Source: a plasmid. Taken from it: 64,000 nt of DNA. The notes below the pieces were generated by a model. That model made no database searches. It was not told the DNA's origin and saw only the letters and a list, made by a program, of their open reading frames with translations. Made by a program: the position numbers and the translations under genes. This document shows positions 15,799 to 45,034 of the stretch, piece after piece. The stretch is taken from the sequence record NZ_CP023526.1. One strand, 5' to 3'. Each line of letters opens with the position of its first letter. Position 1 is the first letter of the stretch.

Positions 15799-15800
15799 CG

Positions 15801-22894: not shown

Positions 22895-23795
22895 ACGTTC
22901 TGCCCTGGGGCGGCACACCCGTCCCGCCTAATCCTCACCCTCACATCAGGAGATACCCTGTGAACACCCCCCTTTCTGTACCCCGTCACCCGCTTCAGGG
23001 CAAAGTCATCGCCATCACCGGGGCCGCCTCCGGGATCGGCCTCGCCTGTGCCTCCGCCTTTCTTGCCGCCGGGGCCCGTGTTGTCATGATTGACCGCGAC
23101 GTCGGAGCCCTCCTCCACCACGCAGATACCCTCGGAGAGCACGCCCTGCCCCTGCCGGCCGACATCACCGACCCTGACCAGGCCGACGGTCTCGCTGACC
23201 ACATCCTCTCCCTCGCCGGACGCCTCGATATCTTCCATGCCAACGCCGGCATGTACACCGGTGGCCCCTTCGTCGACACCGACCCCGACACCATCGCGAA
23301 GCTCCTCGACCTCAACGTCACCGCCACTTTTCGCTGTATCCGCGCTGTCCTCCCCGCCTTTATCGCCCGACGCGGCGGGGATATCCTCCTCACCAGCTCC
23401 GTCGCCGGGGTCGTCCCTGTGGCACACGAGCCCGTCTATACCGCCTCCAAGTTTGCCCTCCAGGGCTTCGTCCACAGCCTCCGCCGGCAGCTCTCTCCCC
23501 ACGGGGTCCGCGTCGGGGCCATCCTTCCCGGCCCGGTCAGCACCGCCCTGCTCACCGCCTGGCCCGAGGCAAAACGCCGTGAGGCCCTGGAGACCTGCGC
23601 CCTCCTGCAGCCCGCTGATGTCGCCGAAGCCGCGCTCTTTATGGTCACCCGGCCCCACGACGTCGTCATCCGGGATCTTGTGATCCTCCCGGCCGGGGTA
23701 GATCTCTGACGCCTTCCTGCCCGGATACTCAGACAGCTGCTCTCACGGAGACCTCAACGACGCCGGGAACCCGGCCCCGGCGCCTGAGGACAAGT
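22895..23795. repeat. SDR cassette copy A (truncated head and tail relative to B and C)
   Basis: Near-identical to 30155-31055 and 43947-44850 as read by eye; ~68% GC in an AT-rich island. Confidence 0.85.
22960..23709 (+). CDS. SDR-family oxidoreductase, high-GC, copy A
   Basis: GKVIAITGAASGIGLA, NAG, YTASKFA motifs; GTG start 8 nt after AGGAGA. A longer ATG-initiated form 22837.. is possible. Long ORFs on the opposite strand are GC artefacts. Confidence 0.8.
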   Translation: MNTPLSVPRHPLQGKVIAITGAASGIGLACASAFLAAGARVVMIDRDVGALLHHADTLGEHALPLPADITDPDQADGLADHILSLAGRLDIFHANAGMYTGGPFVDTDPDTIAKLLDLNVTATFRCIRAVLPAFIARRGGDILLTSSVAGVVPVAHEPVYTASKFALQGFVHSLRRQLSPHGVRVGAILPGPVSTALLTAWPEAKRREALETCALLQPADVAEAALFMVTRPHDVVIRDLVILPAGVDL

Positions 23796-23828
23796 CCAGT
23801 TACTCTGGCTATTTGCAATCTGAGGCTG

Positions 23829-24582
23829 CGGAGAACTCACATAGCAGTGTGCTTCCGGTAAGCTCGTATGTTCCATACTCATTTCAGGCGGTCACATCGG
23901 TGTCAGCGCCCACTGACGCACGGAGGCTTAGTGATGCAAAAATCACGGCACTCTTCATGTCGCCACTGAGTGGCAAGCCCATACCCTGCCGCGCTTCACT
24001 GAATGCTGAGGAGGCAAAATAATTCCCCGCACCCTACAGCGTCCGTCCCCGGCCGGGCACAGCCATCCCGGAAAGCCATCGATCATCATCAACCTGCACA
24101 TTCACCGGCAGTCCGGCGTCATAGCAGGCCTGGTACCACTCCCCTACCTGACAGGCATTCCCGCTCAGCCATGCCTGTCCGCTGTTTTCACTGAACAGCG
24201 CCAGACTGACAGTGCCGTCTGTCCGGATAACAAACGCGGCCCGGCTGGCGGCATAAGGCCGGCCCCTGATGTCCACTTCAATGTCTCGCATCCCTTTCCG
24301 CTCGGGACGAAAGGGCAATATCCGGCTGCCTGCCTTTCGCTGCAGGTCGCGCTCTGCCGCCGTCAGCGACGTCGCCAGGGCACGCCCGTCCCCGGTTAGC
24401 GCAATGAATACCCGTCGGCTGGAATTTCTCTGCGTGCGGATTAATCCGGCGGACTCCAACAGTTCACAGGAATAATAAATGCTACTATTTCTGAGTGACT
24501 TCTGAATATATCTTATCGGGGAAAGTCCCGAAAAATGACGTTCGACTGACAGAATAAAAATAAGAACTTTCTTTTGGAGATT
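23829..24582. repeat. repeat R copy 2
   Basis: See copy 1. Confidence 0.85.
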
Positions 24583-24606
24583 CGTTAACTGTTGCTTTTT
24601 TATCAT
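24034..24606 (-). CDS. hypothetical protein, R family copy 2
   Basis: 190 aa; identical to the copy-1 protein except the first ~14 residues (repeat boundary lies inside the gene). Confidence 0.6.
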   Translation of the reverse strand: MIKKQQLTNLQKKVLIFILSVERHFSGLSPIRYIQKSLRNSSIYYSCELLESAGLIRTQRNSSRRVFIALTGDGRALATSLTAAERDLQRKAGSRILPFRPERKGMRDIEVDIRGRPYAASRAAFVIRTDGTVSLALFSENSGQAWLSGNACQVGEWYQACYDAGLPVNVQVDDDRWLSGMAVPGRGRTL

Positions 24607-24819
24607 GCCTTTTTACTTTATCCTGACTGTGGTTTTCTGTTTATCGTTATCTGCCATATCCATGATGATACAAACTATCATTCTCGGCCAAAGCAGAAAC
24701 TATACCTGTTGACCATTATATGTAATATGCAGGAATGATAATAAAGATCCACATTATGTAGGGTTCATTTTGTGTAGAGTACGTTTTATGTAGGGTGTTT
24801 TTTATCCGGGAGTTTTATC

Positions 24820-25503
24820 ATGGCAATAGCTTCGTTACCCGAAAACTTAATCCAGATGTTTGAAAATGATCCCATTGTTGGATGGGCAGTAAAAGATAAA
24901 GAGTCTCATTTCGTTTACGTAAATAAGGCTTTTAAAATATGGCAAACAATTTCAACGCATTATGACTATGAAGGACTTAAAATTAATGACATTCCGGTTC
25001 CTGTGGCTGAGTTCTCAGATCTGTTTGAACAGCAGGAAAGATACATTGAAGACTCAGGAAAACCCGTACGGGCAATTACAACCCATATTCAGGGCAAAGA
25101 GAAAATCATGCAACCCGCATACAACATTCAGGAACCATTATTTGATGAAAAAAACATTTGTAATGGCACGCTTATAAGCGTAAGGCATGTCAACATCATC
25201 ACGCCGACATCACTCCTCGCAGGGAAAATAAAGCAACATGCAATTTTCCAGGCACCCTCAGTGATATTTACAGAAAAAGAATGGGAAATGGTCTATCTAC
25301 TACAGTGTGATTTCAGCCTTAAAGAAATTAGTAGCATCCTTGGTATTTCTGTTAACGCCATTAACGGAAGATTGAGAAGTTGCTTTAAAAAAATTGGGGC
25401 AAACTCATCATCATCTTTGATTGAGTTTTGCAAATGCAACGGGATGGATAATTACATCCCACAATTCTTTTTAAAAAAGGGGCATATTATCGTTACTGAC
25501 TGA
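24820..25503 (+). CDS. LuxR-type (GerE-like HTH) transcriptional regulator with N-terminal sensor-like domain
   Basis: C-terminal EKEWEMVYLLQCDFSLKEISSILGISVNAINGRLRS matches the LuxR/GerE HTH; ends ...DNYIPQFFLKKGHIIV. Confidence 0.65.
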   Translation: MAIASLPENLIQMFENDPIVGWAVKDKESHFVYVNKAFKIWQTISTHYDYEGLKINDIPVPVAEFSDLFEQQERYIEDSGKPVRAITTHIQGKEKIMQPAYNIQEPLFDEKNICNGTLISVRHVNIITPTSLLAGKIKQHAIFQAPSVIFTEKEWEMVYLLQCDFSLKEISSILGISVNAINGRLRSCFKKIGANSSSSLIEFCKCNGMDNYIPQFFLKKGHIIVTD

Positions 25504-25512
25504 GGGTTATCC

Positions 25513-26157
25513 ATGGATTTTTATTTTAAAAGATCGTTGTTTGGATGGGCCATAAAAGACAACGCATCGCGATATATTTATGTTAACGATTTAGCCTGTC
25601 AATATTTCAATATATCAGCAACCAGAATCATGGGCCGCATAGACACTGAACTAATCCCTGATATTGGAGAGCATTACAAATACATATTACGCGATGACAA
25701 TGAGATAATCAAAAACAAAAAAATGAGCATTGTGCTGAAAGTATTCAATTATGGAAATGAAGGCAAGTTGCGTGCCTATCTGGTAGAAAAAAGACCCTGG
25801 CCGTTACAGAATGGTTCAACAGGCATCATTTGTACCTACATTGAACTCACTAATGTCTATCTGTCCTCATTCTTCGATAATATCTATCGTAAACCCCTTA
25901 TCTTCACCAGACCATCCCCTCTTTTTACCGATCGCGAATGGGAGATAATACTCTTACTGTTATGCGGAGTTAAACGCAAAGGCATATCCGAAATTCTTGG
26001 TATTAGCTACATAACACTAAGAAACCGCATAATACTCTGCTGCGAAAAGTCCGGAGTGCTGAATTATACCCAGCTGCTCAAATATATCCGTACTCAGGGT
26101 TGGGATAACTATATTCCACCGTTTTTTTTAAAGCAGGGGCATATGATCCTTGTTTAA
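25513..26157 (+). CDS. LuxR-type regulator, tandem paralogue
   Basis: 9 bp after the previous gene; same architecture and C-terminal tail (DNYIPPFFLKQGHMILV). Confidence 0.65.
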   Translation: MDFYFKRSLFGWAIKDNASRYIYVNDLACQYFNISATRIMGRIDTELIPDIGEHYKYILRDDNEIIKNKKMSIVLKVFNYGNEGKLRAYLVEKRPWPLQNGSTGIICTYIELTNVYLSSFFDNIYRKPLIFTRPSPLFTDREWEIILLLLCGVKRKGISEILGISYITLRNRIILCCEKSGVLNYTQLLKYIRTQGWDNYIPPFFLKQGHMILV

Positions 26158-26657
26158 CCTAACTTTGCCTCTGTCGACCAAATGCCATGTGATCACCTGT
26201 CATACAGTGAACGCCTTTAATGCAAAAAATTTTGAATCTGGTATCCGCTATTTTTAGCGGTTCAGTTCAGGGCTGAGAATGACGCAAGTGCGCCGACCAG
26301 TTACGGGAGTATGGGTCGGGTCATACCGTTGGCCACAATCAGTGCCGTACTCAGTACAGGGGCAACGGCAGCCGTCAGGAGCAACGATCCGCAAGTAAAC
26401 AGGTCTGATGCTGTGGGCAGCCTGGCGCTCATGGCTTCCCTGCACATTTAGCGCCGGAGCCTACCCCACCCTCGCTGGTCCGAAGACCCCATACGTCATT
26501 CAAGACCACCGTCGGAAACTTCGCATGCAAAGTTCGTGCACGCCCGATATTCTGAAAAGTCGCGGCAATCTGCCGGCGGGACACAGAACCACATTCAGAA
26601 AAGACTCGCTGCATATTGTGAATAATTTTTCGTTTTTTCCCGGTTAAACATGCAGGA

Positions 26658-26918
26658 TTGTCGGGCCATACTCTGATATTTGAAGTGGTCGGAATGGAAT
26701 ACTGTCTTTCAGGTTTTAACGGCGAACGTCTGGATCCGGTCAAGAGGCATTATCATCCTGGGAACGGTTACCGGGGTTACAGTCCTGTACTGGGACGTTT
26801 TACCCGGCCAGATTTATATAACCCCTTTGGCAAGGGTGGTATTAACCCCTACGTTTACTGCACCGGGGATCCGATCAACCGGGATGACCCGTCAGACCAT
26901 TTCAGCCAGGGTAAGTGA
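26658..26918 (+). pseudogene. Rhs/YD-repeat core C-terminal fragment
   Basis: GYRGYSPVLGRFTRPD...NPYVYCTGDPINRDDPSD resembles the conserved Rhs core end (DPxGL region); only 86 aa, no upstream repeats. Confidence 0.5.
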
Positions 26919-27680
26919 CTGGGTTTAGGTATCGGGTTTATTGCAGCGAAAGCCTTCAGTCTCGCGACAGAGAGGAGCACCATGCTGGGTGATTCGGCCA
27001 TTGGGGCAGGCTCTGAGCTCACAGAGGATCGTGTCGACCAACAGCGTGTGAACTGGATCCAGATGAATCTTTCTGCAAGGCTAAACGCCACCACCACACT
27101 GGCCGGATTTGGTCTGGGGAGGTTTGGACCAGTAATCTCTTTGTTCGTTCCGCGTCAGGTCTGAGTCTGTTTACACTCTCCTTTAACACTGTCCGGATTT
27201 TTGACTGGAGTCAGAAAAATGGAAATCTTAAAAGTGCATGGAACTGAAAGGGGTGCGTTCACACATCCTAAGTCAAAAAAGTTGGTGAACTGAACGGAAT
27301 AGGTGTTGGCCTGCATCATGTACTTAAACGCACGTTGTGTAGCTTCATAGTTCACCTGTTCTGCGCGCTAAACGGGCGCCCAGTACAAGATAACTGGTCT
27401 GGTAGACTCAATATGCAAGCACGTCGTCTGTTAATAAGTGTCGGTTTTGTGCCATAGATATTCCCACCTCCACTTCTGCATTTTCAGAATTGGCCATCAC
27501 TTTTCTCGCGACGCCCCCCATTAGTCCCTCAGACGTTATTCTGCCATCAAGACCATCTCCTCAAGCAAGATCAATCGTTAGGCCGGCATCATCAAAAAAT
27601 CGTATGCAGATGTATTGTGTTTTTACTCTTTTCGCCATAAATTGAAAAAAGTAATACAAACTACTACAACGGGTTTGATC

Positions 27681-28826
27681 ATGCACTCACTGACAAAGAT
27701 TCTGAGCTCACTACTCACTGGCGGACAGGAACGAGCACTAAAAGTAATGGATGAAGAGGAGGATGGCCGCAAAGAAGTGACATCCATACGTCTAAAACCT
27801 CAGACGCGGGCGTACTTACAGGCGCAGAGTGAAGTGCTTGGAATTTCGGTTTCACAGTTTATAAACATCATTGTTGATGGAGTGGTAAATATCGAGACGT
27901 CACCACACCAGAGTCGAATAGATACTATTTATGACCGACTGATGTTGCTGTTCGAAATCAATGGAATTGGACCATTAGAAATGAGCCAGATACTGGCTGA
28001 GTATGGGCTAACGCTGTCAAAACTTAAATCACGTGATGCAACACTTGATCTTCTGACTCCGGAGTTACTTAAGAACGTCAGCAACTGGTTCGGTGTACAG
28101 CAATCCTGGCTTAGCGCAAAAAGCGAGGGCGTATTCCCCACGCGCGCTCTCCACTGGTATAAAAATACCGAGGGAATGGCAGCTTCAATTATTGAAAGAA
28201 ACATTGAGTATGGCGATCTTGATGTTTATATCATCAAGAATGCTGGCGTGAGCTTCGAGCAGGCCGAAAAATATGATGACTATGAGAACAATTTGGGTAT
28301 GGGGTTTGTACTCGAGTACCGCACTAAGATAGGCAGCGCCAGCATCTGTCGGTATGAGTTTTGCGAATTTCAGCGCTGGAACTACATTCGGTGTCGCAAT
28401 GACCTGAAGCTGATATTCAGGTTCCTTCACGAGCTTGAACAAAAACGTGCTGCCATCCGTGTTCACGGCTGTACGGTAAAAGAAGCAATATTTGAAAGGA
28501 TCTATAATGGTCGTATCCTTCCAGACCAGCTTAGAATTGCCCTGAACAACGCTGCGTGGTGGGATCCCCGTATCATAACAGAAGATGTTGCGGTCAATTA
28601 TAGTGAGATGAAATTCAGCAAGTTCGTGACGGCCTACTGCGAGCTCCCTATGAAAACAATAAGGCCGGTTTATAACCAGTATTCCAGCAACCCTGAGGCC
28701 TGGACCGTAACGTTATGGAAAGATGATTCCGGGGAACAGAAATACCATTCATTACGTGAAGCGCTGGAAGACAGTTTCAGGCGATATCACAGCACTGATT
28801 TTCCTTCACCAGATGGTGATTGTTAG
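27681..28826 (+). CDS. hypothetical protein; N-terminal ribbon-helix-helix-like segment, large unknown C-terminal domain
   Basis: ATG at 27681 (MHSLTKIL...). TSIRLKPQTRAYLQAQSEVLGISVSQFINIIV looks like an RHH/CopG-type DNA-binding unit; rest has no recognisable motifs; AT-rich. Confidence 0.5.
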   Translation: MHSLTKILSSLLTGGQERALKVMDEEEDGRKEVTSIRLKPQTRAYLQAQSEVLGISVSQFINIIVDGVVNIETSPHQSRIDTIYDRLMLLFEINGIGPLEMSQILAEYGLTLSKLKSRDATLDLLTPELLKNVSNWFGVQQSWLSAKSEGVFPTRALHWYKNTEGMAASIIERNIEYGDLDVYIIKNAGVSFEQAEKYDDYENNLGMGFVLEYRTKIGSASICRYEFCEFQRWNYIRCRNDLKLIFRFLHELEQKRAAIRVHGCTVKEAIFERIYNGRILPDQLRIALNNAAWWDPRIITEDVAVNYSEMKFSKFVTAYCELPMKTIRPVYNQYSSNPEAWTVTLWKDDSGEQKYHSLREALEDSFRRYHSTDFPSPDGDC

Positions 28827-29233
28827 CTGAAGATCAGTGAGCTTATAAGATTTTTTATAGCGTGGGTTCCGAAGCAACCAATACATTTCAAACTAACTCG
28901 TTTCTTATGTGTTTCACATTATCAGTAATGCTAGTAACTTACTGATATTTAAATCGGTAAGGCTAAAATAACTATCCTTATGAATCATTAAAAGCTTACC
29001 TTAACTAAACTCATAAATAGGCTCGTTGAGCCTATTTAACATTGATAAACCCCTCGAAAAAACAATACTTTTATATCTTTCTGCTATTTTTACAGGTTAA
29101 GGGATCTTTTTCATTCTGACCAGTACTCGTCGCCAACGCCTGCCTGTTTTGCACAGGGCTCGCCACATCGGCAGTACAGATATTTATAGATACCATGTTC
29201 AGCAATGGTGAGGCATCAGTCAGGCAACCGCCA

Positions 29234-29731
29234 CTAAGGTACGATGTCAATATCGAACTCACCCTGTAGCTTCTGACGCTGCTCGGTTGAGAGACGACTA
29301 ATTTTCAGTGCAATATTCATTATAGAAGGCGACAGATCCCGCAGAGATTCCACGGTGCTGTCTGCATACTGTGCGGATAACACTCTCATTGCCTGCATGA
29401 TGACCAGATGGCGCTGCGCTTCCGAAATATGTCGGAACAACATTGTCAGCAGAGCAATATCGTCTTCAACTCCTGCGGGTTCTGCCCACTCACCCTCCTC
29501 TCCCAGGAACCATGCCGCACTTACCCCAGTTGCTTTTGCAAGTTTCTTCAGTTGTAAAATGCTGGGGAATGACTCGTGCTTTAAATATCCCCTGATGGCC
29601 GCCTCAGATAACCCCGATTTACGCGCCAGAGAGCTCTTGGTATAGCCAGACATTTCCATGGCCACAGACAACCGTGATCCAAACATGTTCTCATCCGCAG
29701 GTTCAGTCAACTGACTGCCTTTTTTCACCAT
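29234..29731 (-). CDS. XRE/DicA-like HTH repressor (partner of SDR copy B)
   Basis: HTH_XRE plus helical C-terminal domain; homologous to 43045-43536 and DicA-like in architecture. Confidence 0.65.
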   Translation of the reverse strand: MVKKGSQLTEPADENMFGSRLSVAMEMSGYTKSSLARKSGLSEAAIRGYLKHESFPSILQLKKLAKATGVSAAWFLGEEGEWAEPAGVEDDIALLTMLFRHISEAQRHLVIMQAMRVLSAQYADSTVESLRDLSPSIMNIALKISRLSTEQRQKLQGEFDIDIVP

Positions 29732-29847
29732 CTCGTTCTACTCTTAACCGTTTGATTTAACAAGAATATCAATTCAAAAACTCATCAAATCGAAATATTT
29801 TTCGAAAATTAAATTTATTTCGCATTAAATATCGATATCATGTCAGT

Positions 29848-31228
29848 ATAAATTGCAGACAGTTTCCCTCTGCAGATTCAAACACTGAGCATCGCACAGC
29901 CCGGGCGAAATTGCCATGCACGCGTACGTGCCATCAAAGGCAACGTCCAGGCACTGTGTAGCCTGACCGAACCCCGGCTTCACGCAAGTCCGGCCTTCGA
30001 ATTTCAGACACACCACATCGTATACCCGCCAGCCCTGTTTCATCCGGCAGGGGCTCCTGCGCGCGCTGGCATTCTACCATGTCCGACATGAGACGAAGGA
30101 GAGACAAGCCACATGACTCACACCGACGGGCACCAGCCCGACATCTGGCCCGCATACGTTCTGCCCCGGGGCGGCACACCCGTCCCGCCTGGTCCTCACC
30201 CCCACATCAGGAGATACCCTGTGAACACCCCCCTTTCTGTACCCCGTCGCCCGCTTCAGGGCAAAGTCATCGCCATCACCGGGGCCGCCTCCGGGATCGG
30301 CCTCGCCTGTGCCTCCGCCTTTCTTGCCGCCGGGGCCCGTGTTGTCATGATTGACCGTGACGTCGGAGCCCTCCTCCACCACGCAGATACCCTCGGAGAG
30401 CACGCCCTGCCCCTGCCGGCCGACATCACCGACCCTGACCAGGCCGACGGTCTCGCTGACCACATCCTCTCCCTCGCCGGACGCCTCGATATCTTCCATG
30501 CCAACGCCGGCATGTACACCGGTGGCCCCTTCGTCGACACCGACCCCGACACCATCGCGAAGCTCCTCGACCTCAACGTCACCGCCACTTTTCGCTGTAT
30601 CCGCGCTGTCCTCCCCGCCTTTATCGCCCGACGCGGCGGGGATATCCTCCTCACCAGCTCCGTCGCCGGGGTCGTCCCTGTGGCACACGAGCCCGTCTAT
30701 ACCGCCTCCAAGTTTGCCCTCCAGGGCTTCGTCCACAGCCTCCGCCGGCAGCTCTCTCCCCACGGGGTCCGCGTCGGGGCCATCCTTCCCGGCCCGGTCA
30801 GCACCGCCCTGCTCACCGCCTGGCCCGAGGCAAAACGCCGCGAGGCCCTGGAGACCTGCGCCCTCCTGCAGCCCGCTGATGTCGCCGAAGCCGCGCTCTT
30901 TATGGTCACCCGGCCCCACGACGTCGTCATCCGGGATCTTGTGATCCTCCCGGCCGGGGTGGATCTCTGACGCCTTCCTGCCCGGACACTCAGACAGCTG
31001 CTCTCACGGAGACCTCAACGACGCCGGGAACCCGGCCCCGGCGCCTGAGGACAAGTCCGGAGAGGTGCCCTGTCCGCCAAAAGTCGTGCCCCATGGCGCT
31101 TATGGGACTATGACTCACGTCCTTCTACTTTCATCAAAGTGTTGATATTCGTTACTCTTTAGAAAGAGTACCCCCCCTTCTCAATAATCAATGCCGTATG
31201 GACTTAACAACGGCCGCTATGAGCGAGG
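29848..31228. repeat. SDR cassette copy B (full ~1.38-kb unit)
   Basis: Shared with 43636-45034 from tataaattgcagacagtttccct to ...gagcgagRaacggaagtt. Confidence 0.85.
30221..30970 (+). CDS. SDR-family oxidoreductase, copy B
   Basis: As copy A; alternative ATG 30113 preceded by GAAGGAGAGA. Confidence 0.8.
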   Translation: MNTPLSVPRRPLQGKVIAITGAASGIGLACASAFLAAGARVVMIDRDVGALLHHADTLGEHALPLPADITDPDQADGLADHILSLAGRLDIFHANAGMYTGGPFVDTDPDTIAKLLDLNVTATFRCIRAVLPAFIARRGGDILLTSSVAGVVPVAHEPVYTASKFALQGFVHSLRRQLSPHGVRVGAILPGPVSTALLTAWPEAKRREALETCALLQPADVAEAALFMVTRPHDVVIRDLVILPAGVDL

Positions 31229-31357
31229 AACGGAAGTTCGTTTTCAGGTAACATACTCCATATGCAAGAGGTTCTCTAAAAGAGAATGGGGCGTCTAAGC
31301 GGGATATTTACCGCTTCGCGGCACTCTTATGCTCGGAGACGCAACCTGTACCACCAC

Positions 31358-31395
31358 TTTCTGATGCCCCCGCGAGGGCATCAGAAAGTTATTAT
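31358..31395 (+). terminator. 13-bp-stem hairpin followed by a T-rich run (terminator-like)
   Basis: ctttctgatgccc-ccgcga-gggcatcagaaag followed by ttattatctg. Confidence 0.35.
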
Positions 31396-31539
31396 CTGAA
31401 AAACACCCGCGCGGTCATCAGGGACAAGCGTTGCAATGGTAGTCTTTCCATTTCAGGAATCAGGGTTTAGGGAGCTGCAGAGCAGCAAACGCCGTTAAGC
31501 GCTCATTTTAAATGGGTATTAAGGAAAAAGAGGTACTTT

Positions 31540-31989
31540 ATGAAGCTTAAACATCTGGGCACATCGGTGCTGCTGGCGGCAATGGTTTGCTGGAGTAGTT
31601 TATCTACAGCAACCAGTGAGCAGGAAGTGAATGCAAGGCTCGATCAACTTTTCAATACACACCAGGAATATCATAATTTTCTCGATAACCTGCAAACACA
31701 GCTCATCAGCGAAAATAAAGTAGAAGTAGCGAAACTGATTTCTTACCCCATTAAAGTTAATATTGATGGTAAAAAGATTAAAATAAAAACGCCGCAACAG
31801 CTTATCAAATTATACGGTTCCATTTTTACCCCTGCTCTGGTGAAAGTAGTTAATACCCAGCAGTATAAAGATCTGCTTATCAACGCTCAGGGCGTAATGA
31901 TTGGCAACGGGCAAATATGGTTTTCCTCTGTTTGCGGAGATAATCAGTGTAAAAAATCAACCGTGCTAATTACCACCATCAATAAATAG
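31540..31989 (+). CDS. secreted/periplasmic protein of unknown function
   Basis: Signal peptide MKLKHLGTSVLLAAMVCWSSLSTA; AT-rich; GGAAAAAGAGG RBS. Confidence 0.55.
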   Translation: MKLKHLGTSVLLAAMVCWSSLSTATSEQEVNARLDQLFNTHQEYHNFLDNLQTQLISENKVEVAKLISYPIKVNIDGKKIKIKTPQQLIKLYGSIFTPALVKVVNTQQYKDLLINAQGVMIGNGQIWFSSVCGDNQCKKSTVLITTINK

Positions 31990-33559: not shown

Positions 33560-33590
33560 CCTCCTGTTTAGAGAAAACAAAGGTAATGTT

Positions 33591-36200: not shown

Positions 36201-36893
36201 TTGTATCATTTACCAATGGTTGAGGAGGCTTCATATGAAAAAAACTCTATTTTCCAATTGGGTGAATATTGTTACTCCAGTAAAAAAGTGTTGATAGCGA
36301 GCATTCAAAATTATCTTGCCAGGACTAATGATGGAGAGGTAAGCCATCCTGAAACTATTCAAAAGCTGCATTACCTTTTGTTAATGCACCCTAAGGCAAA
36401 GTATAAAATAGGCGCAGGCGTCAAAAAATTTTTAGTAACATCTAATGAATTGGGGTCAGGTAAGGGTTTTGAAATATTACGATATGACAATACGAAGGAA
36501 CGTTTTTCATACAAAACTTGTATCAATGGTCAAAAACAGACTCAACGCTCAAAGTCCGTTGAGGCCCTTCGTTTTTCTATTAGACAACAAATGATTGATT
36601 TTAGAAAAAGTTTAAAGTTGCCTTTAAACTGTGCAATATCTGGTTTGCCTATACATCATCATGATGAAATCCATATCGATCATCGCATTCCATTTTGGGA
36701 GCTGGTTTTAAATTTTCTTCATGAATATAATTACTCATTAATTCAGTTAGAAACTTGTGGTTCTGGTGAATATTTAAAACTCATTGATGAAAACATAATC
36801 AAGGAGTTTTATTATTATCATAAAAAAACAGCCATACTTCAACCAACATTAATAAAATATAATATTGAAAAAAGTGGCAGAGCATCATATTGA
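36201..36893 (+). CDS. hypothetical protein with HNH-nuclease-like motif
   Basis: NCAISGLPIHHHDEIHIDHRIPF resembles the HNH core (Cxx..HH..E.H.DH..P); AT-rich; stand-alone. Confidence 0.45.
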   Translation: MYHLPMVEEASYEKNSIFQLGEYCYSSKKVLIASIQNYLARTNDGEVSHPETIQKLHYLLLMHPKAKYKIGAGVKKFLVTSNELGSGKGFEILRYDNTKERFSYKTCINGQKQTQRSKSVEALRFSIRQQMIDFRKSLKLPLNCAISGLPIHHHDEIHIDHRIPFWELVLNFLHEYNYSLIQLETCGSGEYLKLIDENIIKEFYYYHKKTAILQPTLIKYNIEKSGRASY

Positions 36894-37193
36894 TAATTTG
36901 GCCAGCAGGGGTATTTGAACACCTGTCTACGTTGTTGAGCGGCTTGCAGAGATCGAGCAGGAACGGCAAAGAGCCGCGCTATCAGGCAAAATAATACACT
37001 GAGCATGATAGTTCCGGGTGGTGTGCCAGATTCTGAATTTTGGTCAACTCATTCTCCCTATTTTCCATCTTATGATAAAACGGAGCTGCAGGTGGGTGAT
37101 TTTTTGCTGCGGTAAGGCAGGGACGAATATTCAGCGGTAAGTTTGCAACCGGAGTGTGATACACGACCCGCAAAATGACAGGGAAATACAGGT

Positions 37194-37487: not shown

Positions 37488-38085
37488 TGGGTGAACAGTA
37501 CACTCACGCGGGGGGCGGAGCTGGAGCAGGACTGGCAGCGCTGTCGGAAAAGCGGCGATGTCGACGGGACCCCTGAGCTGCTGCAGTTGTGCCGGGCCTG
37601 GAAACAGGATGTGCAGGATTTGCTGGCCACGCTGAAGGCCGATGCGCAGATTTTACCGTCACAGCGGGCCTGTGTCGCGGCAGTTCTGCTCCCCATGATA
37701 GACCGCATCGTCAGCCCGTCTGCGCTGCAGAACGAAAGGAGTCAGAAATGAGCCATGACCGCCCGGTTCTGTCCCTGAAGCGAAAAACCGTGACGCCGGA
37801 GACCGGCGATACTTCGTCAGTAATGCCTACCCGCCGCACGGTGATACTGGCTGCCGGGCCGGAGGCAGCGTATCTCCGGTATCCGCGCCAGCCAGTCCCG
37901 GGTGTCCACATGGTCGCCCTCCCCGGCTGATGTCGGCAGAGCAGGCCGTCAGCCTCTTCAGTCAGACCTGGTCGGCGTTGTTTGAGGGGCAGCAACTGCG
38001 CCCAATGAAGAAAGGTATCCGGGAAGATATCTTTGCCGATATCGCGGCCCGTCCGTGTCCCGAAAAAAGGTACGGCGTGGCTGGC
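37486..38085 (+). pseudogene. ProQ/FinO-family RNA-chaperone gene remnants (three short consecutive ORFs)
   Basis: The third fragment, MSAEQAVSLFSQTWSALFEGQQLRPMKKGIREDIFADIAA, matches the ProQ/FinO N-terminal motif (FP..F......RPLKIGI.QDL). It is broken by stops into ORFs of 88, 60 and 51 aa. Confidence 0.4.
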
Positions 38086-38286
38086 TGAGTCTCACCCGCA
38101 GCGAAACGTACGTGGCAGTACGGGTTTCCGTCAGCCCCGCTTTGGGCCTGACGGGCAATCCGTTGGCGTAGTGACAAAAATGAAGCCGGGTTCAGCCAGC
38201 AACAAGTGAGGAAAGTGGGAGCCTGAGTGCGGGGTTATCTGTCGCCAGAGACCAGGTTACAGCCTTGAGGGAAACACCCATCATGG

Positions 38287-39591
38287 CTAATCAGGCAATC
38301 TGGACAAGCGTTGTCGTTTATTACAGGCTTTCCAGAGCCAGCTTTCCATGATGTAAACAATACAGGCGACGGCAATCGAGTTTATGGCAGGCACTCCCCG
38401 GGTATATTCGAGGCCTACAACACAACCCGCCAGACTTGCGATAATGGCCATCCAGCCTGTGTCCGGGGTGAAATCAGGCAGGGTGTTACGGGTATTGCTT
38501 TCGCGAAGCGTTTCCCGGTGTGTTTTCAGGACGTAGTAATCCATTAACATCACCCCAATAACGGGCGGAAATATAACCCCCAGCAGTGTCAGAAAATCCA
38601 CGAACATATCCAGAATACCCAGGACGGACAGCGTGGTTCCCAGTATTCCTATGACTATCGTGGTGGGTGTATATCGCAGTCTGATACCGGTGAGTCCCTC
38701 AACCACATTGGCAATGCCCAGCGTCGAAGAATAGAGATTGATATCATTGATACGTAAGGTTGAAAACACCACAATCAGGAGCCCGATATTACCGGCCCCC
38801 TGTGACATAATGGCCACAATGTCGGAAGTGCCTGACACGCGTGATATCAGAATAGCGAGCCCGTTGACAACGACTTCACCGGAAACAACCGTTAACAGGG
38901 TAATACCGAATACCTGGCGCGAATTTCTGGAATACCGTGTTAAGTCCGGGGTGATCAGGCTGGCGACAATGGCTCCACCAACAACAATAGTAGTACCGGC
39001 ACTAATGGATAACCGATGCCCGGTGGGCGGCATCAACAGGATTTCTGTAATCGTATGGTCTTTTAAGGTGTGGTATGAAATAAAGGCAATCAACGAAACA
39101 AAAAGCGGAACCGCAATCCGCGCCGCAATTTTCAGTGCCCGAAAGCCAAAAGCCACCAGAAAAGTCAGAAACAGGCCTGATGCCGAGGCAGCAAGGGGAA
39201 AACCCGGACGACCATGCAGGGCCGCATTCAACGAGCGGGCAAAAATCGCGTTCTGAACGCCAAACCATCCGAGAAGGCTCACCGCAACCACCAGACCGAT
39301 GAGCACAGAACCGTTGCGCCCGAAGCCGCACCAGCGTGCCAGCAGACTGCCGGAAATCCCCTCCCGCATCCCCGCCAGACCCAGCCCCCAGGTGACGAGC
39401 CCGAATAATAGTCCTCCTGCAGCAATCGCTACCAACGCTGCCGACAGCGTCATCGAATTACCCAGCACGGCCCCCATCATGAACTGGTCCAGTGCGGTTA
39501 TCATTCCCATATGAACGATGGCAACGCTCAGAAAAGACGCTTTTCTGTCCGCTGGTACCCGGCTCAGGGGAAAATCATCAAATTTTAACAT
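38287..39591 (-). CDS. NCS1-family nucleobase:cation symporter (cytosine/purine/allantoin-type permease)
   Basis: 434 aa, ~12 TM helices, NCS1-like conserved N-terminal region (ADRKASFLSVAIVHMGMITALDQFMMGAVLG). Confidence 0.75.
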   Translation of the reverse strand: MLKFDDFPLSRVPADRKASFLSVAIVHMGMITALDQFMMGAVLGNSMTLSAALVAIAAGGLLFGLVTWGLGLAGMREGISGSLLARWCGFGRNGSVLIGLVVAVSLLGWFGVQNAIFARSLNAALHGRPGFPLAASASGLFLTFLVAFGFRALKIAARIAVPLFVSLIAFISYHTLKDHTITEILLMPPTGHRLSISAGTTIVVGGAIVASLITPDLTRYSRNSRQVFGITLLTVVSGEVVVNGLAILISRVSGTSDIVAIMSQGAGNIGLLIVVFSTLRINDINLYSSTLGIANVVEGLTGIRLRYTPTTIVIGILGTTLSVLGILDMFVDFLTLLGVIFPPVIGVMLMDYYVLKTHRETLRESNTRNTLPDFTPDTGWMAIIASLAGCVVGLEYTRGVPAINSIAVACIVYIMESWLWKACNKRQRLSRLPD

Positions 39592-39608
39592 TGGAAAAAC
39601 ACCTTATA

Positions 39609-40304
39609 TTAAATGAACACAATGCTTTTATTCAGAAGACTTGGGGGGATATAACTGTTCAGAGCTGTATGGCGGCAGTATTCAACAAATTGTTCACGGG
39701 AATGCACATCAGCTTTGTAATATATTTCCTGCACCCTGTTACCGATTGTCCGGGCACTCAGGTTATAAACTCTGGCAATTTCTTTAATGGAGAATCGCTG
39801 GAGTAACAAAAAAATAATATCGTGTTCCGCTGCGGTGAAATTGCCCTGGCCGGTAACCTCAGTTGTCAGAATGCCTGGTTTAGTTTTGGAGATAAAACTC
39901 AGCGGGGAGAGAGAGGTCAGCGGTTTTGCATTCCACACAATGCACACCAGCTCGCCTGTCGCGCTAAATACAGGCGTTTTTTCACTAATGAACGGTAACA
40001 GATGGCCCTGCCCGTACCAGTAATCGGTTTCAATTACCGTCACTTTTTTCCGCGATAGCCCGGTCACGCGGTCATGCTCGATTAAGTCAGCAGACAACTC
40101 AGCCCAGCAGGCCGGAAACTCCGCATCATACTTTCCTTCAAAGTCAAAATTTGACGGTGTCAGCGTATAGCTCAGGGCTGCAGCATTCATGTAAAGATGA
40201 CGTGAATCCGGGAGTTTGAGCCCCCAGGGTTCATCCAGATGTTCCAGCATGCTGACTAAAAGAGAAATATCCGAACCAGAGTCAGAAGGCAGAACCTTAC
40301 TCAT
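39609..40304 (-). CDS. LuxR-type regulator, third paralogue of the 24820/25513 pair
   Basis: C-terminal AAEHDIIFLLLQRFSIKEIARVYNLSARTIGNRVQEIY and tail NSYIPPSLLNKSIVFI. Confidence 0.65.
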   Translation of the reverse strand: MSKVLPSDSGSDISLLVSMLEHLDEPWGLKLPDSRHLYMNAAALSYTLTPSNFDFEGKYDAEFPACWAELSADLIEHDRVTGLSRKKVTVIETDYWYGQGHLLPFISEKTPVFSATGELVCIVWNAKPLTSLSPLSFISKTKPGILTTEVTGQGNFTAAEHDIIFLLLQRFSIKEIARVYNLSARTIGNRVQEIYYKADVHSREQFVEYCRHTALNSYIPPSLLNKSIVFI

Positions 40305-40321
40305 TTCGCACAGACCACCGG

Positions 40322-40729
40322 CTACAGTTCTTTGGACAGGTAATGCCGGCTGAACTTTCTGGCATAACCATCCAGTTTGCCGTATTCACGGTAACCCAAC
40401 TTCTCGTAAAACCCGCGAGCCTGGAAACTGAAGGTGTCCACGTAAGTCATGTGGCATCCCCGCTTCCGGGCTTCCATTTCCGCCCTTAACATAAGGGCCC
40501 TGCCGTATCCCTTCCGGCGTTCTTCTTCTGCTACCCAGAGATACTGTATTTCCAGCGCTCCCCACCACGTCTGGGCGACCAGTCCCCCTGAAAGCATATC
40601 GCCATTATAAATGGACAACATGAAAGGACGTATATCCACCGGAGCCCAGGCTTCATTATGTGTCCAGAGGTTATCGATGATGAGGTGCTTCGTTTTTTCA
40701 TCAGGACGATCGCTAAAATGAATATTCAT
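40322..40729 (-). CDS. GNAT-family N-acetyltransferase
   Basis: WVAEEERRKGYGRALM acetyl-CoA-binding motif; 135 aa. Confidence 0.8.
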   Translation of the reverse strand: MNIHFSDRPDEKTKHLIIDNLWTHNEAWAPVDIRPFMLSIYNGDMLSGGLVAQTWWGALEIQYLWVAEEERRKGYGRALMLRAEMEARKRGCHMTYVDTFSFQARGFYEKLGYREYGKLDGYARKFSRHYLSKEL

Positions 40730-41255
40730 AAAAATTCCCTGTTAAAGGCGGATTTACAGAAGCTATTAGGTGACAAAAATCTCAAAACAACCAACCCCAT
40801 GCCTTTTTTTGGCAGAATATTCAGAACATTCTCTAACTAGTGATTTAGCTGAACTAAACAGTGGTGCAGTATCAGAAATGGGATTTAGAATATGCTGGAT
40901 AAAAGCAGGCTGACAGTAACCTGGCTCATATCCCGCTACTAATCTTGTCTGCGTATTGCGCCATCCCTCCCTGTCACCAGTCGAATCTGTCTTTCAGAGC
41001 TATTTTAGCTCTGGCCCAGCATTTTCATCAGCGTACCTTAAAAGCAAAGCACCGAGATAATTTAGAAACTTTTTTGGCATTATTCAGAAACGGAAGCGAA
41101 TATCACTGCAAAAAAGGTTTTTTCTCTAAAATAATCAGCCTGGAAACACCTTATTTGCTTTTACTAATACCTCCTCAATTTCTGGTCGCAACGCCAGGAG
41201 ATATGGCCTGGATGGGGGTGAAATCCGGTGATATGACCGAGGCGACGGCACGAGG

Positions 41256-41522
41256 GTGAGCGCTGAGGGCGAGAACAACGTCCAGACCCGCCAGGGTGCC
41301 AGGGCCTTCCTGCTAGGGCATAATCAGATGGATAGCGGAAAAGACCGAAATTTCCAGCCGTTCGTGAAAGTCAACTGGCTGCATAACACGAAGCGTAATG
41401 GCGTGGTGATGAATGGCGTATCGCTGGAGCAGGCCGGGGCTGTCAATGTCGGGGAAGTAAAACTCGGTGCAGAAGGCCAGTTGATCCGCCAGACAGCGCT
41501 GTGGGGAAACGTGAGGCAGTAA
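41256..41522 (+). pseudogene. autotransporter beta-barrel domain C-terminal fragment
   Basis: FQPFVKVNWLHNTKRNGVVMNGVSLEQAGAVNVGEVKLGAEGQLIRQTALWGNVRQ matches the terminal strands of autotransporter translocator domains; no passenger domain upstream. Confidence 0.45.
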
Positions 41523-41682
41523 CTGGGAGACAGAGTACAGCAACACGGCGGCCATGGTGGGCATTAAGTACTCATTTTAATCAACCACAGAAATCATCCG
41601 ATCGGCCCTGTGCACTCCGCAGGGCCAACTGGAGCGTTGAACCCGATGTTCTGGTCATTTTTCGAACTAACGCTCAAAACAG

Positions 41683-42336
41683 GTGATGCAAACAATCAAC
41701 AGAGGGGCGCAGATAGGTATGAAAAAGAAGCGGCAGCTATCCCGAATTCAGAAAAAAATTCTGCCTTTGATTCTAAAAACTGAGTCCTTTTCTTCAGACC
41801 CTATGTCCTTACGAAACATCGGACGAACGGTTGGGGAAGTCAATATACATTATTCCTGTCATTCGCTGGAAAGCCTGGGGCTTATCAGTCTTCAGCGATC
41901 CCGGACTCGCCAGCTGTTTCTTAAACTGACTGATGCAGGGAGGACGGTGGCGGCACGGTTACAGGAAGAGGCATATACGGCGGAAAAGGAACGACGTCAA
42001 CAAGAGGAATGCCGGGTTCTGCCATTTCGTCCTCCCGGAAGAGAGACACTGGATATTGAGGTGTATATCAGAGGGAGACCATACACTGCTAATCGAGCAA
42101 CGTTCATTATTCGAGTGGACGGATCCGTTAGCCTCGCTCTGTCGAGTAAAAACAGCGGTCAGGCCTGGCTGAATGGTGATGCTGTGCAAGTGGCTGAGTG
42201 GTATCAGATCTGCTATGACGCCGGGTTATCGGTGAATGTGCAGGTTAATGATAGCTTATGGTCTCCGGCGGCCCCCGCCTTGGCCTCAATGACCAGCCAG
42301 CCAGTCGGTGCGGTGACGGAGAGTGAAACTGGGTAG
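41683..42336 (+). CDS. hypothetical protein, divergent R-family homologue
   Basis: 217 aa; colinear with the 16697/24034 proteins (LSRIQKKILPLIL..., DIEVYIRGRPYTANRATFIIRVDGSVSLALSSKNSGQAWLNGDAVQVAEWYQICYDAGLSVNVQV). Confidence 0.55.
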   Translation: MMQTINRGAQIGMKKKRQLSRIQKKILPLILKTESFSSDPMSLRNIGRTVGEVNIHYSCHSLESLGLISLQRSRTRQLFLKLTDAGRTVAARLQEEAYTAEKERRQQEECRVLPFRPPGRETLDIEVYIRGRPYTANRATFIIRVDGSVSLALSSKNSGQAWLNGDAVQVAEWYQICYDAGLSVNVQVNDSLWSPAAPALASMTSQPVGAVTESETG

Positions 42337-42542
42337 CGCGGGGTTATCTGTCGGCCAGTGCCTGCGACTGCATATTCCGACCCAAACCGATCATTGATTC
42401 CGATGCAGTCCGATCGCACTTTCCGATTTAATTCGACCACGGATTCTGATTTGCTCCGGCCAGATTTAGTCATCTGTCGGAATCCATGATTTAATTTCTG
42501 ACGCATGCCAGCAGCCGTGCCCTGCCTGCGGTCTCGCTCAAG

Positions 42543-43001
42543 TTAGAGGGCAATATCGGGGGCCCCACTCCGGATGAAGCAGTTTTCGGCCCCCCAGTCG
42601 GGCCAGTGCAAGCGCCACCAGATCGCAGAATGCCAGATGATGCGCAGGATTATTGCCCGATTGTCATTGAATTTCTTCAGGCGAGTCTCAACAATCGCCT
42701 GCATCATATAAATACCGGGATTCTGGTTGAGTGTGCGGTTCCACAGGGAACGATGAGGAAGTGGAAAACACCGTGTGATTCGCTGCACCTTTCTGCACAG
42801 GCGCGCACCAGGACATAAGCATTTCTCGTGTTGATAGACTCGCCGTTTGCACATTGCCTTACGAGCCTCGTTTAGGCTGTCTGTATCCATCCATTTAGCA
42901 ATTCGGTTGTGGTAGTCATTATGGAACAGCGGCTTATCATTGGTAAATTTGGCATTTGTCGTAAGGTGAAGATAATCCAGGCTTGAACATTCCTTCTCCA
43001 T
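42543..43001 (-). CDS. hypothetical protein (possibly a remnant)
   Basis: 152-aa ORF, no recognisable motif; context is IS/fragment-rich. Confidence 0.3.
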   Translation of the reverse strand: MEKECSSLDYLHLTTNAKFTNDKPLFHNDYHNRIAKWMDTDSLNEARKAMCKRRVYQHEKCLCPGARLCRKVQRITRCFPLPHRSLWNRTLNQNPGIYMMQAIVETRLKKFNDNRAIILRIIWHSAIWWRLHWPDWGAENCFIRSGAPDIAL

Positions 43002-43044
43002 GCCACAGTTTCTACCACTATACTCTGCTCTGGATTAACTCGAG

Positions 43045-43536
43045 CTAATCCCCCAGCCCTTTCTCATCAAGAAGGTACTCCCTACGAATGGCTCTTTGTT
43101 TATCCACTGATAACTTATTCAGTTCCAAGGCAAGCTCGATAACCGGCACAGGTAAAGACATCACCTCGCGCCCATCAGAGCCCCTTGCATTTTCAACCTG
43201 CTGCAGCAATGCATTTAACATTTGTTTGATAACGATACTTCGCTGGGCGTCCGACAAAAACTCGGCCAGAGTCATCATTAACTGCAGGTCTCTTTTTATA
43301 CAGCACTCATCATCAGTCTGACTTACATCTTCCCCTAACAGCCAGGCTGAGCTTAGGCCCGTTGCCCGGGCTATTTTTTGTACCTGCTCAATGCCATTAG
43401 GCACAGAGTCACCCGCAACATAGCCCCGAATAGTGGAATAAGGGATATCACATTTCTGCGCTAAATCGCGCATGGAATCCCCTGTCATAGTGAGCAGCTC
43501 GGCAAGTCTGACACTAAAATTGCTCTTAATCATCAC
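43045..43536 (-). CDS. XRE/DicA-like HTH repressor (partner of SDR copy C)
   Basis: Homologous to 29234-29731 (SSAWLLGED...; LSDAQRSIVIKQML). Confidence 0.65.
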   Translation of the reverse strand: MMIKSNFSVRLAELLTMTGDSMRDLAQKCDIPYSTIRGYVAGDSVPNGIEQVQKIARATGLSSAWLLGEDVSQTDDECCIKRDLQLMMTLAEFLSDAQRSIVIKQMLNALLQQVENARGSDGREVMSLPVPVIELALELNKLSVDKQRAIRREYLLDEKGLGD

Positions 43537-43635
43537 ACACCAGGCATGTAACCATATGAATAGAATAGCAATTGCAGAGATTATCTAAAATTAGTTATTT
43601 TATGCCTTTATTTCTCTAATTTTAGATATACCCTG

Positions 43636-45034
43636 TTTGTATAAATTGCAGACAGTTTCCCTTTGCAGATTCAAACACTGCGCATCGCACAGCCCGGGCG
43701 AAATTGCCATGCACGCGTACGTGCCATCAAAGGCAACGTCCAGGCACTGTGTAGCCTGACCGAACCCCGGCTTCACGCAAGTCCGGCCTTCGAATTTCAG
43801 ACACACCACATCGTATACCCGCCAGCCCTGTTTCATCCGGCAGGGGCTCCTGCGCGCGCTGGCATTCTACCATGTCCGACATGAGACGAAGGAGAGACAA
43901 GCCACATGACTCACACCGACGGGCACCAGCCTGACATCTGGCCCGCATACGTTCTGCCCCGGGGCGGCACACCCGTCCCGCCTGGTCCTCACCCCCACAT
44001 CAGGAGATACCCTGTGAACACCCCCCTTTCTGTACCCCGTCACCCGCTTCAGGGCAAAGTCATCGCCATCACCGGGGCCGCCTCCGGGATCGGCCTCGCC
44101 TGTGCCTCCGCCTTTCTTGCCGCCGGGGCCCGTGTTGTCATGATTGACCGCGACGTCGGAGCCCTCCTCCACCACGCAGATACCCTCGGAGAGCACGCCC
44201 TGCCCCTGCCGGCCGACATCACCGACCCCGACCAGGCCGACGGTCTCGCTGACCACATCCTCTCCCTCGCCGGACGCCTCGATATCTTCCATGCCAACGC
44301 CGGCATGTACACCGGCGGCCCCTTCGTCGACACCGACCCCGACACCATCGCGAAGCTCCTCGACCTCAACGTCACCGCCACTTTTCGCTGTATCCGCGCT
44401 GTCCTCCCCGCCTTTATCGCCCGACGCGGCGGGGATATCCTCCTCACCAGCTCCGTCGCCGGGGTCGTCCCTGTGGCACACGAGCCCGTCTATACCGCCT
44501 CCAAGTTTGCCCTCCAGGGCTTCGTCCACAGCCTCCGCCGGCAGCTCTCTCCCCACGGGGTCCGCGTCGGGGCCATCCTTCCCGGCCCGGTCAGCACCGC
44601 CCTGCTCACCGCCTGGCCCGAGGCAAAACGCCGCGAGGCCCTGGAGACCTGCGCCCTCCTGCAGCCCGCTGATGTCGCCGAAGCCGCGCTCTTTATGGTC
44701 ACCCGGCCCCACGACGTCGTCATCCGGGATCTTGTGATCCTCCCGGCCGGGGTGGATCTCTGACGCCTTCCTGCCCGGATACTCAGACAGCTGTTCTCAC
44801 GGAGACCTCAACGACGCCGGGAACCCGGCCCCGGCGCCTGAGGACAAGTCCGGAGAGGTGCCCTGTCCGCCAAAAGTCGTGCCCCATGGCGCTTATGGGA
44901 CTATGACTCACGTCCTTCTACTTTCATCAAAGTGTTGATATTCGTTACTCTTTAGAAAGAGTCCCCCCCTTCTCAATAATCAATGCCGTATGGACTTAAC
45001 AACGGCCGCTATGAGCGAGAAACGGAAGTTAACA
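43636..45034. repeat. SDR cassette copy C (full unit)
   Basis: See copy B. Confidence 0.85.
44014..44763 (+). CDS. SDR-family oxidoreductase, copy C
   Basis: As copies A and B; alternative ATG 43906. Confidence 0.8.
   Translation: MNTPLSVPRHPLQGKVIAITGAASGIGLACASAFLAAGARVVMIDRDVGALLHHADTLGEHALPLPADITDPDQADGLADHILSLAGRLDIFHANAGMYTGGPFVDTDPDTIAKLLDLNVTATFRCIRAVLPAFIARRGGDILLTSSVAGVVPVAHEPVYTASKFALQGFVHSLRRQLSPHGVRVGAILPGPVSTALLTAWPEAKRREALETCALLQPADVAEAALFMVTRPHDVVIRDLVILPAGVDL

Follow-up and report, generated by a model that had tools for sequence, protein, structure and literature searches.

How do three almost identical copies of one short-chain dehydrogenase/reductase (SDR) gene come to lie beside three repressor genes that are strongly diverged from each other? 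The question is raised by a 64,000-nt stretch of the sequence record NZ_CP023526.1, which was analysed as a whole and is called the window here. The copies, labelled A, B and C from left to right, fall within 22 kb; B and C carry a leader and the remnant of a gene for a Ner-like DNA-binding protein in front of the SDR gene, and A carries the end of that remnant. An earlier reading, made from the letters alone (the sequence-only reading), had proposed either duplication or gene conversion of a foreign gene, or a non-autonomous mobile cassette aimed at sites next to XRE repressor genes. Our results show concerted evolution of this (Ner)-SDR operon by gene conversion, and we regard it as very probable that the window, from a genomic-island region of Cedecea neteri, holds three old heteroimmune modules whose rightward operon has been homogenised within the genome.

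Self-BLAST of the window aligned copy B with copy C over 1393 bp at 99.21% identity with one 1-nt gap, and copy A over 904 bp with positions 30155-31058 (B) and 43948-44851 (C) at 99.0% each (Table 1). A separate repeat search agreed. The near-identity reported by the sequence-only reading is thus borne out, its coordinates lying within a few bases of the repeat ends fixed here. Each copy has its own unique flank, in which a divergently oriented HTH_3/HTH_31 gene starts ~115-250 bp away. That reading had also raised the possibility that one locus was duplicated by mis-assembly. The near-identity of the copies is the only point in its favour, and three different flanks together with 9-10 differences specific to single copies make it very unlikely. 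Moreover, the same three proteins are recorded, as exact matches, in two separate Cedecea neteri records (ATF95476, ATF95484 and ATF95499 in a plasmid-labelled record of 254 kb; SQC92063, SQC92081 and SQC92090 in a 721-kb contig), and in a related genome a single 369-kb contig carries two copies. The type strain NBRC 105707 has a draft assembly in which an 855-bp contig, 99.6-99.8% identical to all three copies, stops exactly at the three-way repeat end (23797/31058/44851), as expected of a collapsed repeat. We consider the chance of an artefact negligible.

The loci used for comparison were two from Cedecea sp. NFIX57 (L082 and L083), one from a Logan contig (L085) and two, L172 and L081, from the 369-kb contig, a JGI sequence. 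The last two provide a test of concerted evolution in one genome besides the window, at two loci: L172 is the orthologue of locus B and L081 that of locus C, and on the left side their flanks share 97.1% and 93.0% identity with those of the window. Within the window the B and C cassettes are 99.28% identical and within the other genome the two cassettes are 98.13% identical, while all four between-genome pairs are 96.5-96.9% identical. At the two-state sites, 27 group the copies by genome and none by locus. Because the loci were in place before the strains diverged, copying from locus to locus inside each lineage must account for these 27 differences. Gene conversion, offered as one alternative by the sequence-only reading, is therefore not only supported but required. 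The same deletion in the Ner-like gene is found in B, in C and in both copies of the other genome, because the converted allele was already without Ner.

It could also be argued that the modules were acquired separately, from a gene pool where one common SDR allele, with Ner deleted, circulates in combination with different immunity types. Mosaic junctions at the module borders are typical of phage-like elements, copy A lies within a strain-specific 6.6-kb insertion and the region is rich in mobile and defence cargo, all of which would suit three independent arrivals. However, B and C are orthologous in the second genome, yet the two copies of each genome share 27 genome-specific differences, so that homogenisation after the loci were in place is needed in any case. 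We consider independent arrivals unlikely, with the reservation that copy A, taken alone, could have arrived with an already identical allele.

The repressors tell a different story from the operons they face. The XRE proteins of the window share 22% (A/B), 23% (A/C) and 32% (B/C) amino-acid identity, in line with the strong divergence described before. They had been called DicA-like, which holds at the level of the superfamily but not for DicA itself (~20 bits against a family cutoff of 101), so they are best termed generic XRE repressors. Related repressors lie in other Cedecea loci: XRE_A is 80% identical to the L083 repressor (76% at the nucleotide level over the XRE region) and XRE_B 73% identical to that of L082, and XRE_B with its intergenic region keeps 75% DNA identity to L082 up to position 29929, inside the cassette leader. 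In NFIX57, A-type and B-type repressors each adjoin their own diverged SDR, the two being 84% identical to each other and 75-79% to the window SDRs. The common layout is a leftward XRE gene, a rightward HTH_35 Ner-like gene (99-103 aa) and an SDR gene (245-249 aa); it was found in L082, L083, L085 and a further locus, L084, and the Ner-like and SDR genes overlap in L082 and L083. The Ner-like product of these relatives begins MT(N/D)TDWHPADVVAALHKRGTS...IHPAEIWP(T/A)RY and matches SfsB/Nlp, of the Ner-like family, with E = 6e-27.

In the window this gene is dead. An internal deletion of ~55 codons has removed the entire HTH domain, joining MTHTDGHQPD to IWPAY, and the remnant runs in frame into the SDR gene, giving the annotated 285-aa ORF that starts MTHTDGHQPDIWPAY. 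The HTH is lost in B and C, the Ner gene is absent in A, and tblastn detected no intact Ner-like gene in the window. As a consequence, what the sequence-only reading took for a 5' leader is only partly so: positions 29846-30112 are a true non-coding leader and the remainder belongs to the dead gene. The leader was considered as a structured RNA and this was rejected (z-score only -0.5). The window XREs and their lineage-specific palindromes are present, and the divergent XRE/Ner arrangement is seen in L082, L083 and L085. With the Ner HTH gone, the window would presumably have a locked switch or one that works by simple repression only.

These relatives also bear on the idea of a mobile element, one that a recombinase or transposase would mobilise in trans and that would insert by preference beside XRE genes. 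Such an element would account for the occurrence, in different contexts, of three sharply bounded and near-identical copies, and in P2-like phages, plasmids and islands exchanged cargo is flanked by the repeat family in which the right ends of B and C fall. Insertion beside XRE genes is nevertheless not supported, because the repressors of another species already had Ner-SDR operons: several lineages have the XRE-Ner-SDR linkage as an ancestral trait, orthologous XREs are accompanied by diverged SDRs, and the leader is homologous between copy B and L082. Neither the repeat search nor the alignment of copy junctions revealed terminal inverted repeats, flanking direct repeats or target-site duplications. 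Without terminal repeats, and with the ends of copy A differing from those of B and C, the cassette does not qualify as a transposon, insertion sequence (IS) or miniature inverted-repeat transposable element; no recombinase gene was found to accompany it. Nor is it an integron cassette, as no attC-like repeat bounds the unit, no integrase was found among the scanned neighbours and it carries its own promoter-like leader. Megablast of the cassette gave no match in E. coli genomes or PLSDB plasmids, and in distant-mode searches only the SDR coding region and a 93-bp element, described below, were matched. A protein-guided metagenome scan showed no close relative, and an exact scan for the left-end motif TGTNNGTATAAATTGCAGACAG in metagenome and viral contigs gave no match. 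The cassette thus appears to be confined to Cedecea. In view of this evidence, we think a mobile cassette highly improbable.

We therefore return to gene conversion between old modules, and propose the following course of events. Each module would at first have consisted of an XRE repressor facing an operon with a long leader, a Ner-like gene (SfsB/Nlp-type, a Cro analogue) and the RbtD-like SDR gene. Repressors and operators would have separated into three deeply diverged lineages, while the rightward operons stayed alike enough to recombine. Intragenomic conversion of the RecA type would then have overwritten the operon repeatedly, until one allele, which had earlier lost the Ner DNA-binding domain, came to occupy all three loci. 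The mechanism of recombination is what we infer here; the tract corresponds to the full stretch that can still be aligned between modules and therefore fits homology-dependent recombination. The repressor genes remained outside conversion because they are too diverged to take part. The tract is limited on the left by a promoter-like motif common to all lineages, and on the right by a repeat of the P2 Z-region type, beyond which lies locus-specific cargo, largely defence genes.

At the left limit, alignment of the intergenic regions showed no variation in the motif TGTnnGTATAAATTGCAGACAG among B, C, L081 and L082. Its resemblance to a -10 box with a transcript start or operator points to a promoter role, and a transcript start is predicted at ~29853, directly 3' of GTATAAAT. 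Upstream of the motif the lineages cannot be aligned with each other, and this diverged part includes the palindromes that we regard as candidate XRE operators. Those of copy C, at 43575-43635, differ from those of B.

At the right limit, B/C identity ends inside the conserved 93-bp non-coding element. Its first 28 nt contain CTATGAGCGA-N5-GGAAGTTCG (31217-31240), generalised as CTnTGAGCGA-N5-GGAnGTTCG, and the core pattern can also be written CTNTGAGCGA-N5-GGANGTTCG. Copy B keeps the whole element and then has a terminator-like hairpin, where the B transcription unit probably ends. Copy C retains a truncated motif (45009-45030), with defence-type cargo directly 3' (a PDC-S39 candidate, with Lamassu further on). 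The element or its motif recurs in other sequences (L172 11094-11114 and 16400-16423; L091 7001-7085; L173 4001-4086; L175 4001-4089; L223 5048-5071), at one place each in 97 of 5426 E. coli genomes and in 19 large Klebsiella, Citrobacter and Raoultella plasmids, and its 28-nt motif occurs 49 times in IMG/VR contigs. It was thus seen in E. coli islands, large IncHI/IncF plasmids, P2-like prophages and the Cedecea island, under no annotated feature among the E. coli and plasmid matches listed.

The contexts of this element that we examined adjoin defence genes: a type I restriction-modification system and DarTG in E2348/69, a UvrD-helicase and ATP-dependent nuclease pair in 99COLEC, which we take to be Gabija-like, and a CD-NTase-type nucleotidyltransferase with a Cap15 receptor in pMB18183_1, presumably a CBASS-type pair. 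In the related Cedecea locus L172, two motif copies bracket a Gabija-plus-transposase insert. The two IMG/VR loci inspected, L223 and L195, are P2-like prophages in which the motif lies ~200 bp upstream of a 396-aa sheath-sized ORF, a position that we assume to be Z/fun from the P2 gene order, and the similarity of the P2-like backbone stops at the motif. In P2-EC30 (AJ512676.1), inverted repeats are annotated that flank foreign DNA in the Z/fun region, and the motif matches their inner ends, with ...GTC(C/T)GCTnTGAGCGAGnAGCGGAAG in common. As in the P2 Z region, similarity between our loci ends at the motif and variable cargo follows. In contrast to the P2 repeats, the motif of the window lies in a chromosomal or megaplasmid island, not in a P2 prophage, and occurs as single same-strand copies instead of an inverted pair: only two same-strand matches (at up to 3 mismatches) were found in the window, and L172 has two direct copies. 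Its breakpoints also vary (after 12 nt in L172, after 22 nt in copy C), unlike those of a precise site-specific exchange. The right end of the cassette thus represents a type of cargo junction already known, and not the end of a mobile SDR unit. Support for an RNA structure in the 93-bp element is weak (2-3 covarying pairs). Its assignment to IS110 was discarded, since in the Klebsiella plasmid IS110 is a separate insertion ~26 bp downstream, and Tn3-family and tRNA-like readings were considered by eye and dropped. The route by which P2/P4 defence hotspots exchange genes with other elements was described as not known in 2026 (PMC13586616).

The sequence-only reading had also pointed to near-palindromes as possible binding sites. 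The one in the tail, TACTCTTT-AG-AAAGAGTA, is indeed present in B and C, whereas the one in the head is not conserved in L082.

Copy A calls for an additional event. Two direct repeats of 760 bp, absent from the sequence-only reading, bracket positions 17246-23822, and the L172 genome runs straight from the equivalent of 17259 to 23823. The segment between them is strain-specific, being absent from that related genome, and carries QueC-like, Vut_1 transporter, HTH, SDR and TolA_C genes besides XRE_A and copy A. The arrangement suggests that it was inserted or deleted by recombination between the repeats. Copy A begins partway through the Ner remnant, and at its right end the last 180 bp of the B/C tail are missing.

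Several points weigh against homogenisation by conversion as a full account of the locus. The left end of copy A is not at a plausible homology boundary: positions 22847-22893 are not recognisable as Ner sequence, so that a deletion or an illegitimate join is needed besides conversion. The concerted-evolution test is built on a single comparison genome, and for a single event the replacement of the whole tract from a third strain would look alike. Finally, conversion does not explain the extreme bias of the cassette to codons ending in C.

This bias is one aspect of the alien composition noted by the sequence-only reading, which we confirm: the cassettes have a GC content of 0.63-0.69 and a strongly negative GC skew, against a GC content of 0.3-0.5 around them, and at the codon level the bias is one to C (the SDR coding sequence has a GC content of 0.68 and a GC skew of -0.25). 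At four-fold sites, the fraction of C is 0.69 in the window SDR, 0.70 in L172, 0.81 in L082, 0.51 in L083 and 0.36 in L085; it is 0.27-0.38 in host genes, 0.14-0.27 in the adjacent XRE genes and 0.23-0.30 in true rbtD genes. In the window, L172 and L082, the three versions richest in C, the fraction of G is 0.12-0.17. Among 153 codons for the same amino acid in four lineages, those ending in C number 54, 73, 98 and 112. The Ner genes share the bias, and the leader of L082 is free of it (the Ner-SDR region of L082 is 7702-8738). A host-wide mutational bias is not the cause, because the two NFIX57 copies differ (0.81 and 0.51). Simple import from a high-GC donor is argued against by the nearest proteins, which are enterobacterial. 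The description as a foreign gene thus holds only in the sense of island cargo of very odd composition: the nearest relatives, at 60-65% identity, are enterobacterial, and high-GC taxa reach only ~50%.

Several other candidates were rejected. An antisense ORF at 30074-30919 is open only in versions rich in C at third codon positions and has 3-6 stops in L083 and L085; it was rejected as a real gene and, being closed in less biased relatives, is a by-product of the bias. A G-quadruplex or i-motif as trigger of conversion was dropped, as no canonical motif lies within the cassette. An ongoing drive to C was rejected as well, the few polarised recent substitutions showing no sign of it. The C content of 69-81% and G content of 12-17% at four-fold sites, the difference between the NFIX57 copies and a homogenised tract extending from near the transcript start to the 3' tail led us to consider a strand-specific process acting on the transcribed Ner-SDR unit. 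In one form, transcript-linked conversion or repair may both homogenise the copies and enrich C on the sense strand; in the other, strong selection may favour a C-rich, G-poor mRNA, for example through Rho- or translation-coupled control. We regard a process of this kind as distinctly improbable. The bias itself has no obvious cause and is a by-product observation possibly of wider use.

The cassette encodes an intact enzyme that is under purifying selection, dN/dS being 0.11-0.29 against every relative. Identity among the window SDRs is 99.6-100%, one residue differing between the three. The start of SDR_B is most likely the GTG at 30221, seven bases after AGGAG, which yields the 249 aa also given by the NCBI models P0123 and P0125. 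The protein has the motifs ITGAASGIG, HANAG and S...YTASK and matches Pfam adh_short (PF00106) with 181.8 bits against a cutoff of 26.6 (E = 1e-53). Its closest solved structures are ribitol 2-dehydrogenases (PDB 9x6o/9x6l, E = 7e-88; 5jo9, E = 1e-71), the next one following at 1e-31, and outside its own small clade its closest relatives are the enterobacterial enzymes of the same name, at 60-65% identity. These lie in operons of a LacI-type regulator, rbtD and an FGGY kinase. In comparison with RbtD of the rbtR-rbtD-rbtK operons of Klebsiella, Providencia and others, the window SDR is alike in its motifs and over its full length. It differs in lying beside neither a ribulokinase gene nor a LacI-type regulator but, in three copies, next to XRE regulators in an XRE-controlled island, and in the 69% C at its four-fold sites against 23-30% in true rbtD genes. 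The enzyme is thus of the RbtD family by sequence and not by context; it is probably a polyol or sugar dehydrogenase, made from an XRE-controlled promoter as island cargo. For annotation it should be kept in mind that the 285-aa "glucose dehydrogenase" ORFs are a dead Ner gene fused to an RbtD-like SDR.

Table 1. Coordinates of the cassette copies and of features near them (window positions unless a locus is named).
Feature	Position	Strand	Remarks
760-bp direct repeat 1	16487..17245	+	99.6% to repeat 2
Recurring ~190-217-aa family	16697-17281	-
Recurring ~190-217-aa family	24034-24606	-
Recurring ~190-217-aa family	41683-42336	+
Recurring ~190-217-aa family	L081 7768-8397, 19243-19863
XRE_A repressor gene	22175..22639	-	154 aa as in ATF95541.1; HTH_31/HTH_3 (Pfam); orthologous to L083 XRE
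Cassette copy A	22894..23797	+	both ends truncated: 67 bp of Ner-remnant 3' end, SDR coding sequence, 88 bp of tail
SDR_A coding sequence	22960..23709	+	249 aa; GTG start after AGGAG; RbtD-like
760-bp direct repeat 2	23823..24582	+	starts 25 bp after end of copy A
XRE_B repressor gene	29234..29731	-	165 aa; orthologous to L082 XRE
AT-rich palindromes CGAAATATTTTTCGAAAA...	29787..29832		diverged part of B intergenic region; candidate XRE_B operators
Left end of B/C repeat, GTATAAATTGCAGACAG	29846..29862	+	copy C equivalent 43639-43655
Cassette copy B	29846..31238	+	full length: leader, Ner remnant, SDR, tail
Ner-like gene remnant	30113..30220	+	Pfam HTH_35, SfsB-type; in frame with SDR (annotated 285-aa ORF)
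SDR_B coding sequence	30221..30970	+	249 aa; motifs TGAASGIG, NAG, YTASK
Tail palindrome TACTCTTTAGAAAGAGTA	31154..31171	+	arms kept in L081/L172, centre varies
Conserved non-coding element	31211..31303	+	~93 bp; B/C identity ends inside it
Strong terminator-like hairpin	31356..31389	+	14-bp stem
XRE_C repressor gene	43045..43533	-	162 aa from ATG; 96% aa to L081 XRE
Cassette copy C	43639..45030	+	full length; terminates in truncated 28-nt motif (45009-45030)
SDR_C coding sequence	44014..44763	+	249 aa
PDC-S39 candidate	45275-47140		PADLOC; DUF7380/DUF4209 protein; E = 8e-87
Lamassu LmuB/LmuA	50483-54284		with ABC-3C middle component; defence-type cargo

The surrounding island was surveyed as well. 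Besides the two systems in Table 1, defence-type cargo around copy C lies at 36201-36893 and 55713-56993, and includes a DUF3223 HamC-like protein and HipA. At the orthologous position, L172 has an OLD-type nuclease/UvrD-helicase pair, which we assume to be Gabija-like, and SIR2, and L081 has HNH and DNA methylase genes. A family of ~190-217-aa proteins recurs near the modules; its members show 69-78% similarity at the nucleotide level and have no Pfam, NCBIfam or PADLOC match. Across the whole window the only Rfam match at gathering threshold was isrN, a Hfq-binding small RNA found at full length (145.6 bits; 49517-49659) in an IS3-type element beside an rve transposase gene (48813-49697); a permissive scan of 29700-31600 gave nothing credible, and no tRNA genes were found. 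An autotransporter remnant at 40945-41522 retains the C-terminal beta-domain only, and at the corresponding place the related genome has an intact 896-aa pertactin-type autotransporter (L081 4976-7666). Finally, a gene cluster at 2204-16379 (GC 0.56-0.60) encodes AMP-binding, MMPL-like, ketoacyl-synthase, ApeP-like and phosphopantetheinyl-transferase proteins. As we read it, it resembles an aryl-polyene-type lipid cluster, and it appears to be conserved backbone abutted by the mosaic island.

The locus offers a well-bounded case of concerted evolution on accessory island DNA: an enzyme gene, its leader and its tail are identical at three loci, and the repressors a few hundred bases off are as different as unrelated proteins. 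The modules of mobile elements can thus have separate histories inside one genome. Near-identical repeats beside regulators need not be transposons, and labels such as "plasmid" and "foreign" need care. The Z-type repeat delimits cargo in P2-like prophages, in large plasmids and in islands, and deserves a systematic look.

RecA-dependent gene conversion is known for dispersed paralogues such as tufA/tufB in Salmonella and the rRNA operons. As in those systems, the paralogues in the window occupy fixed, separate loci and resemble each other more inside one genome than orthologues do between genomes, homology sets the bounds of the tract, and purifying selection acts on the coding sequence. Unlike tufA/tufB, the unit converted here is not a core gene but accessory island cargo, with a leader and a 3' tail, and it abuts regulators of 22-32% identity. 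The second parallel is with temperate phages, known for the mosaicism of their immunity regions, and with the c/ner early region of phage Mu. In IncA/C plasmids the Ner-like Acr1 heads the acaDC regulatory operon (PMC4207636). Our modules resemble Mu c/ner and Acr1-acaDC in that a repressor faces an operon headed by a small DNA-binding protein of the Ner/Cro type, and they resemble heteroimmune phages in combining lineage-specific repressors and operators with shared downstream sequence. They differ in that the gene after Ner is a metabolic-type SDR instead of an activator of replication, transposition or transfer, and in that the Ner HTH has been lost in all copies of the window. In summary, our results indicate a new example of known processes and not a new kind of element.

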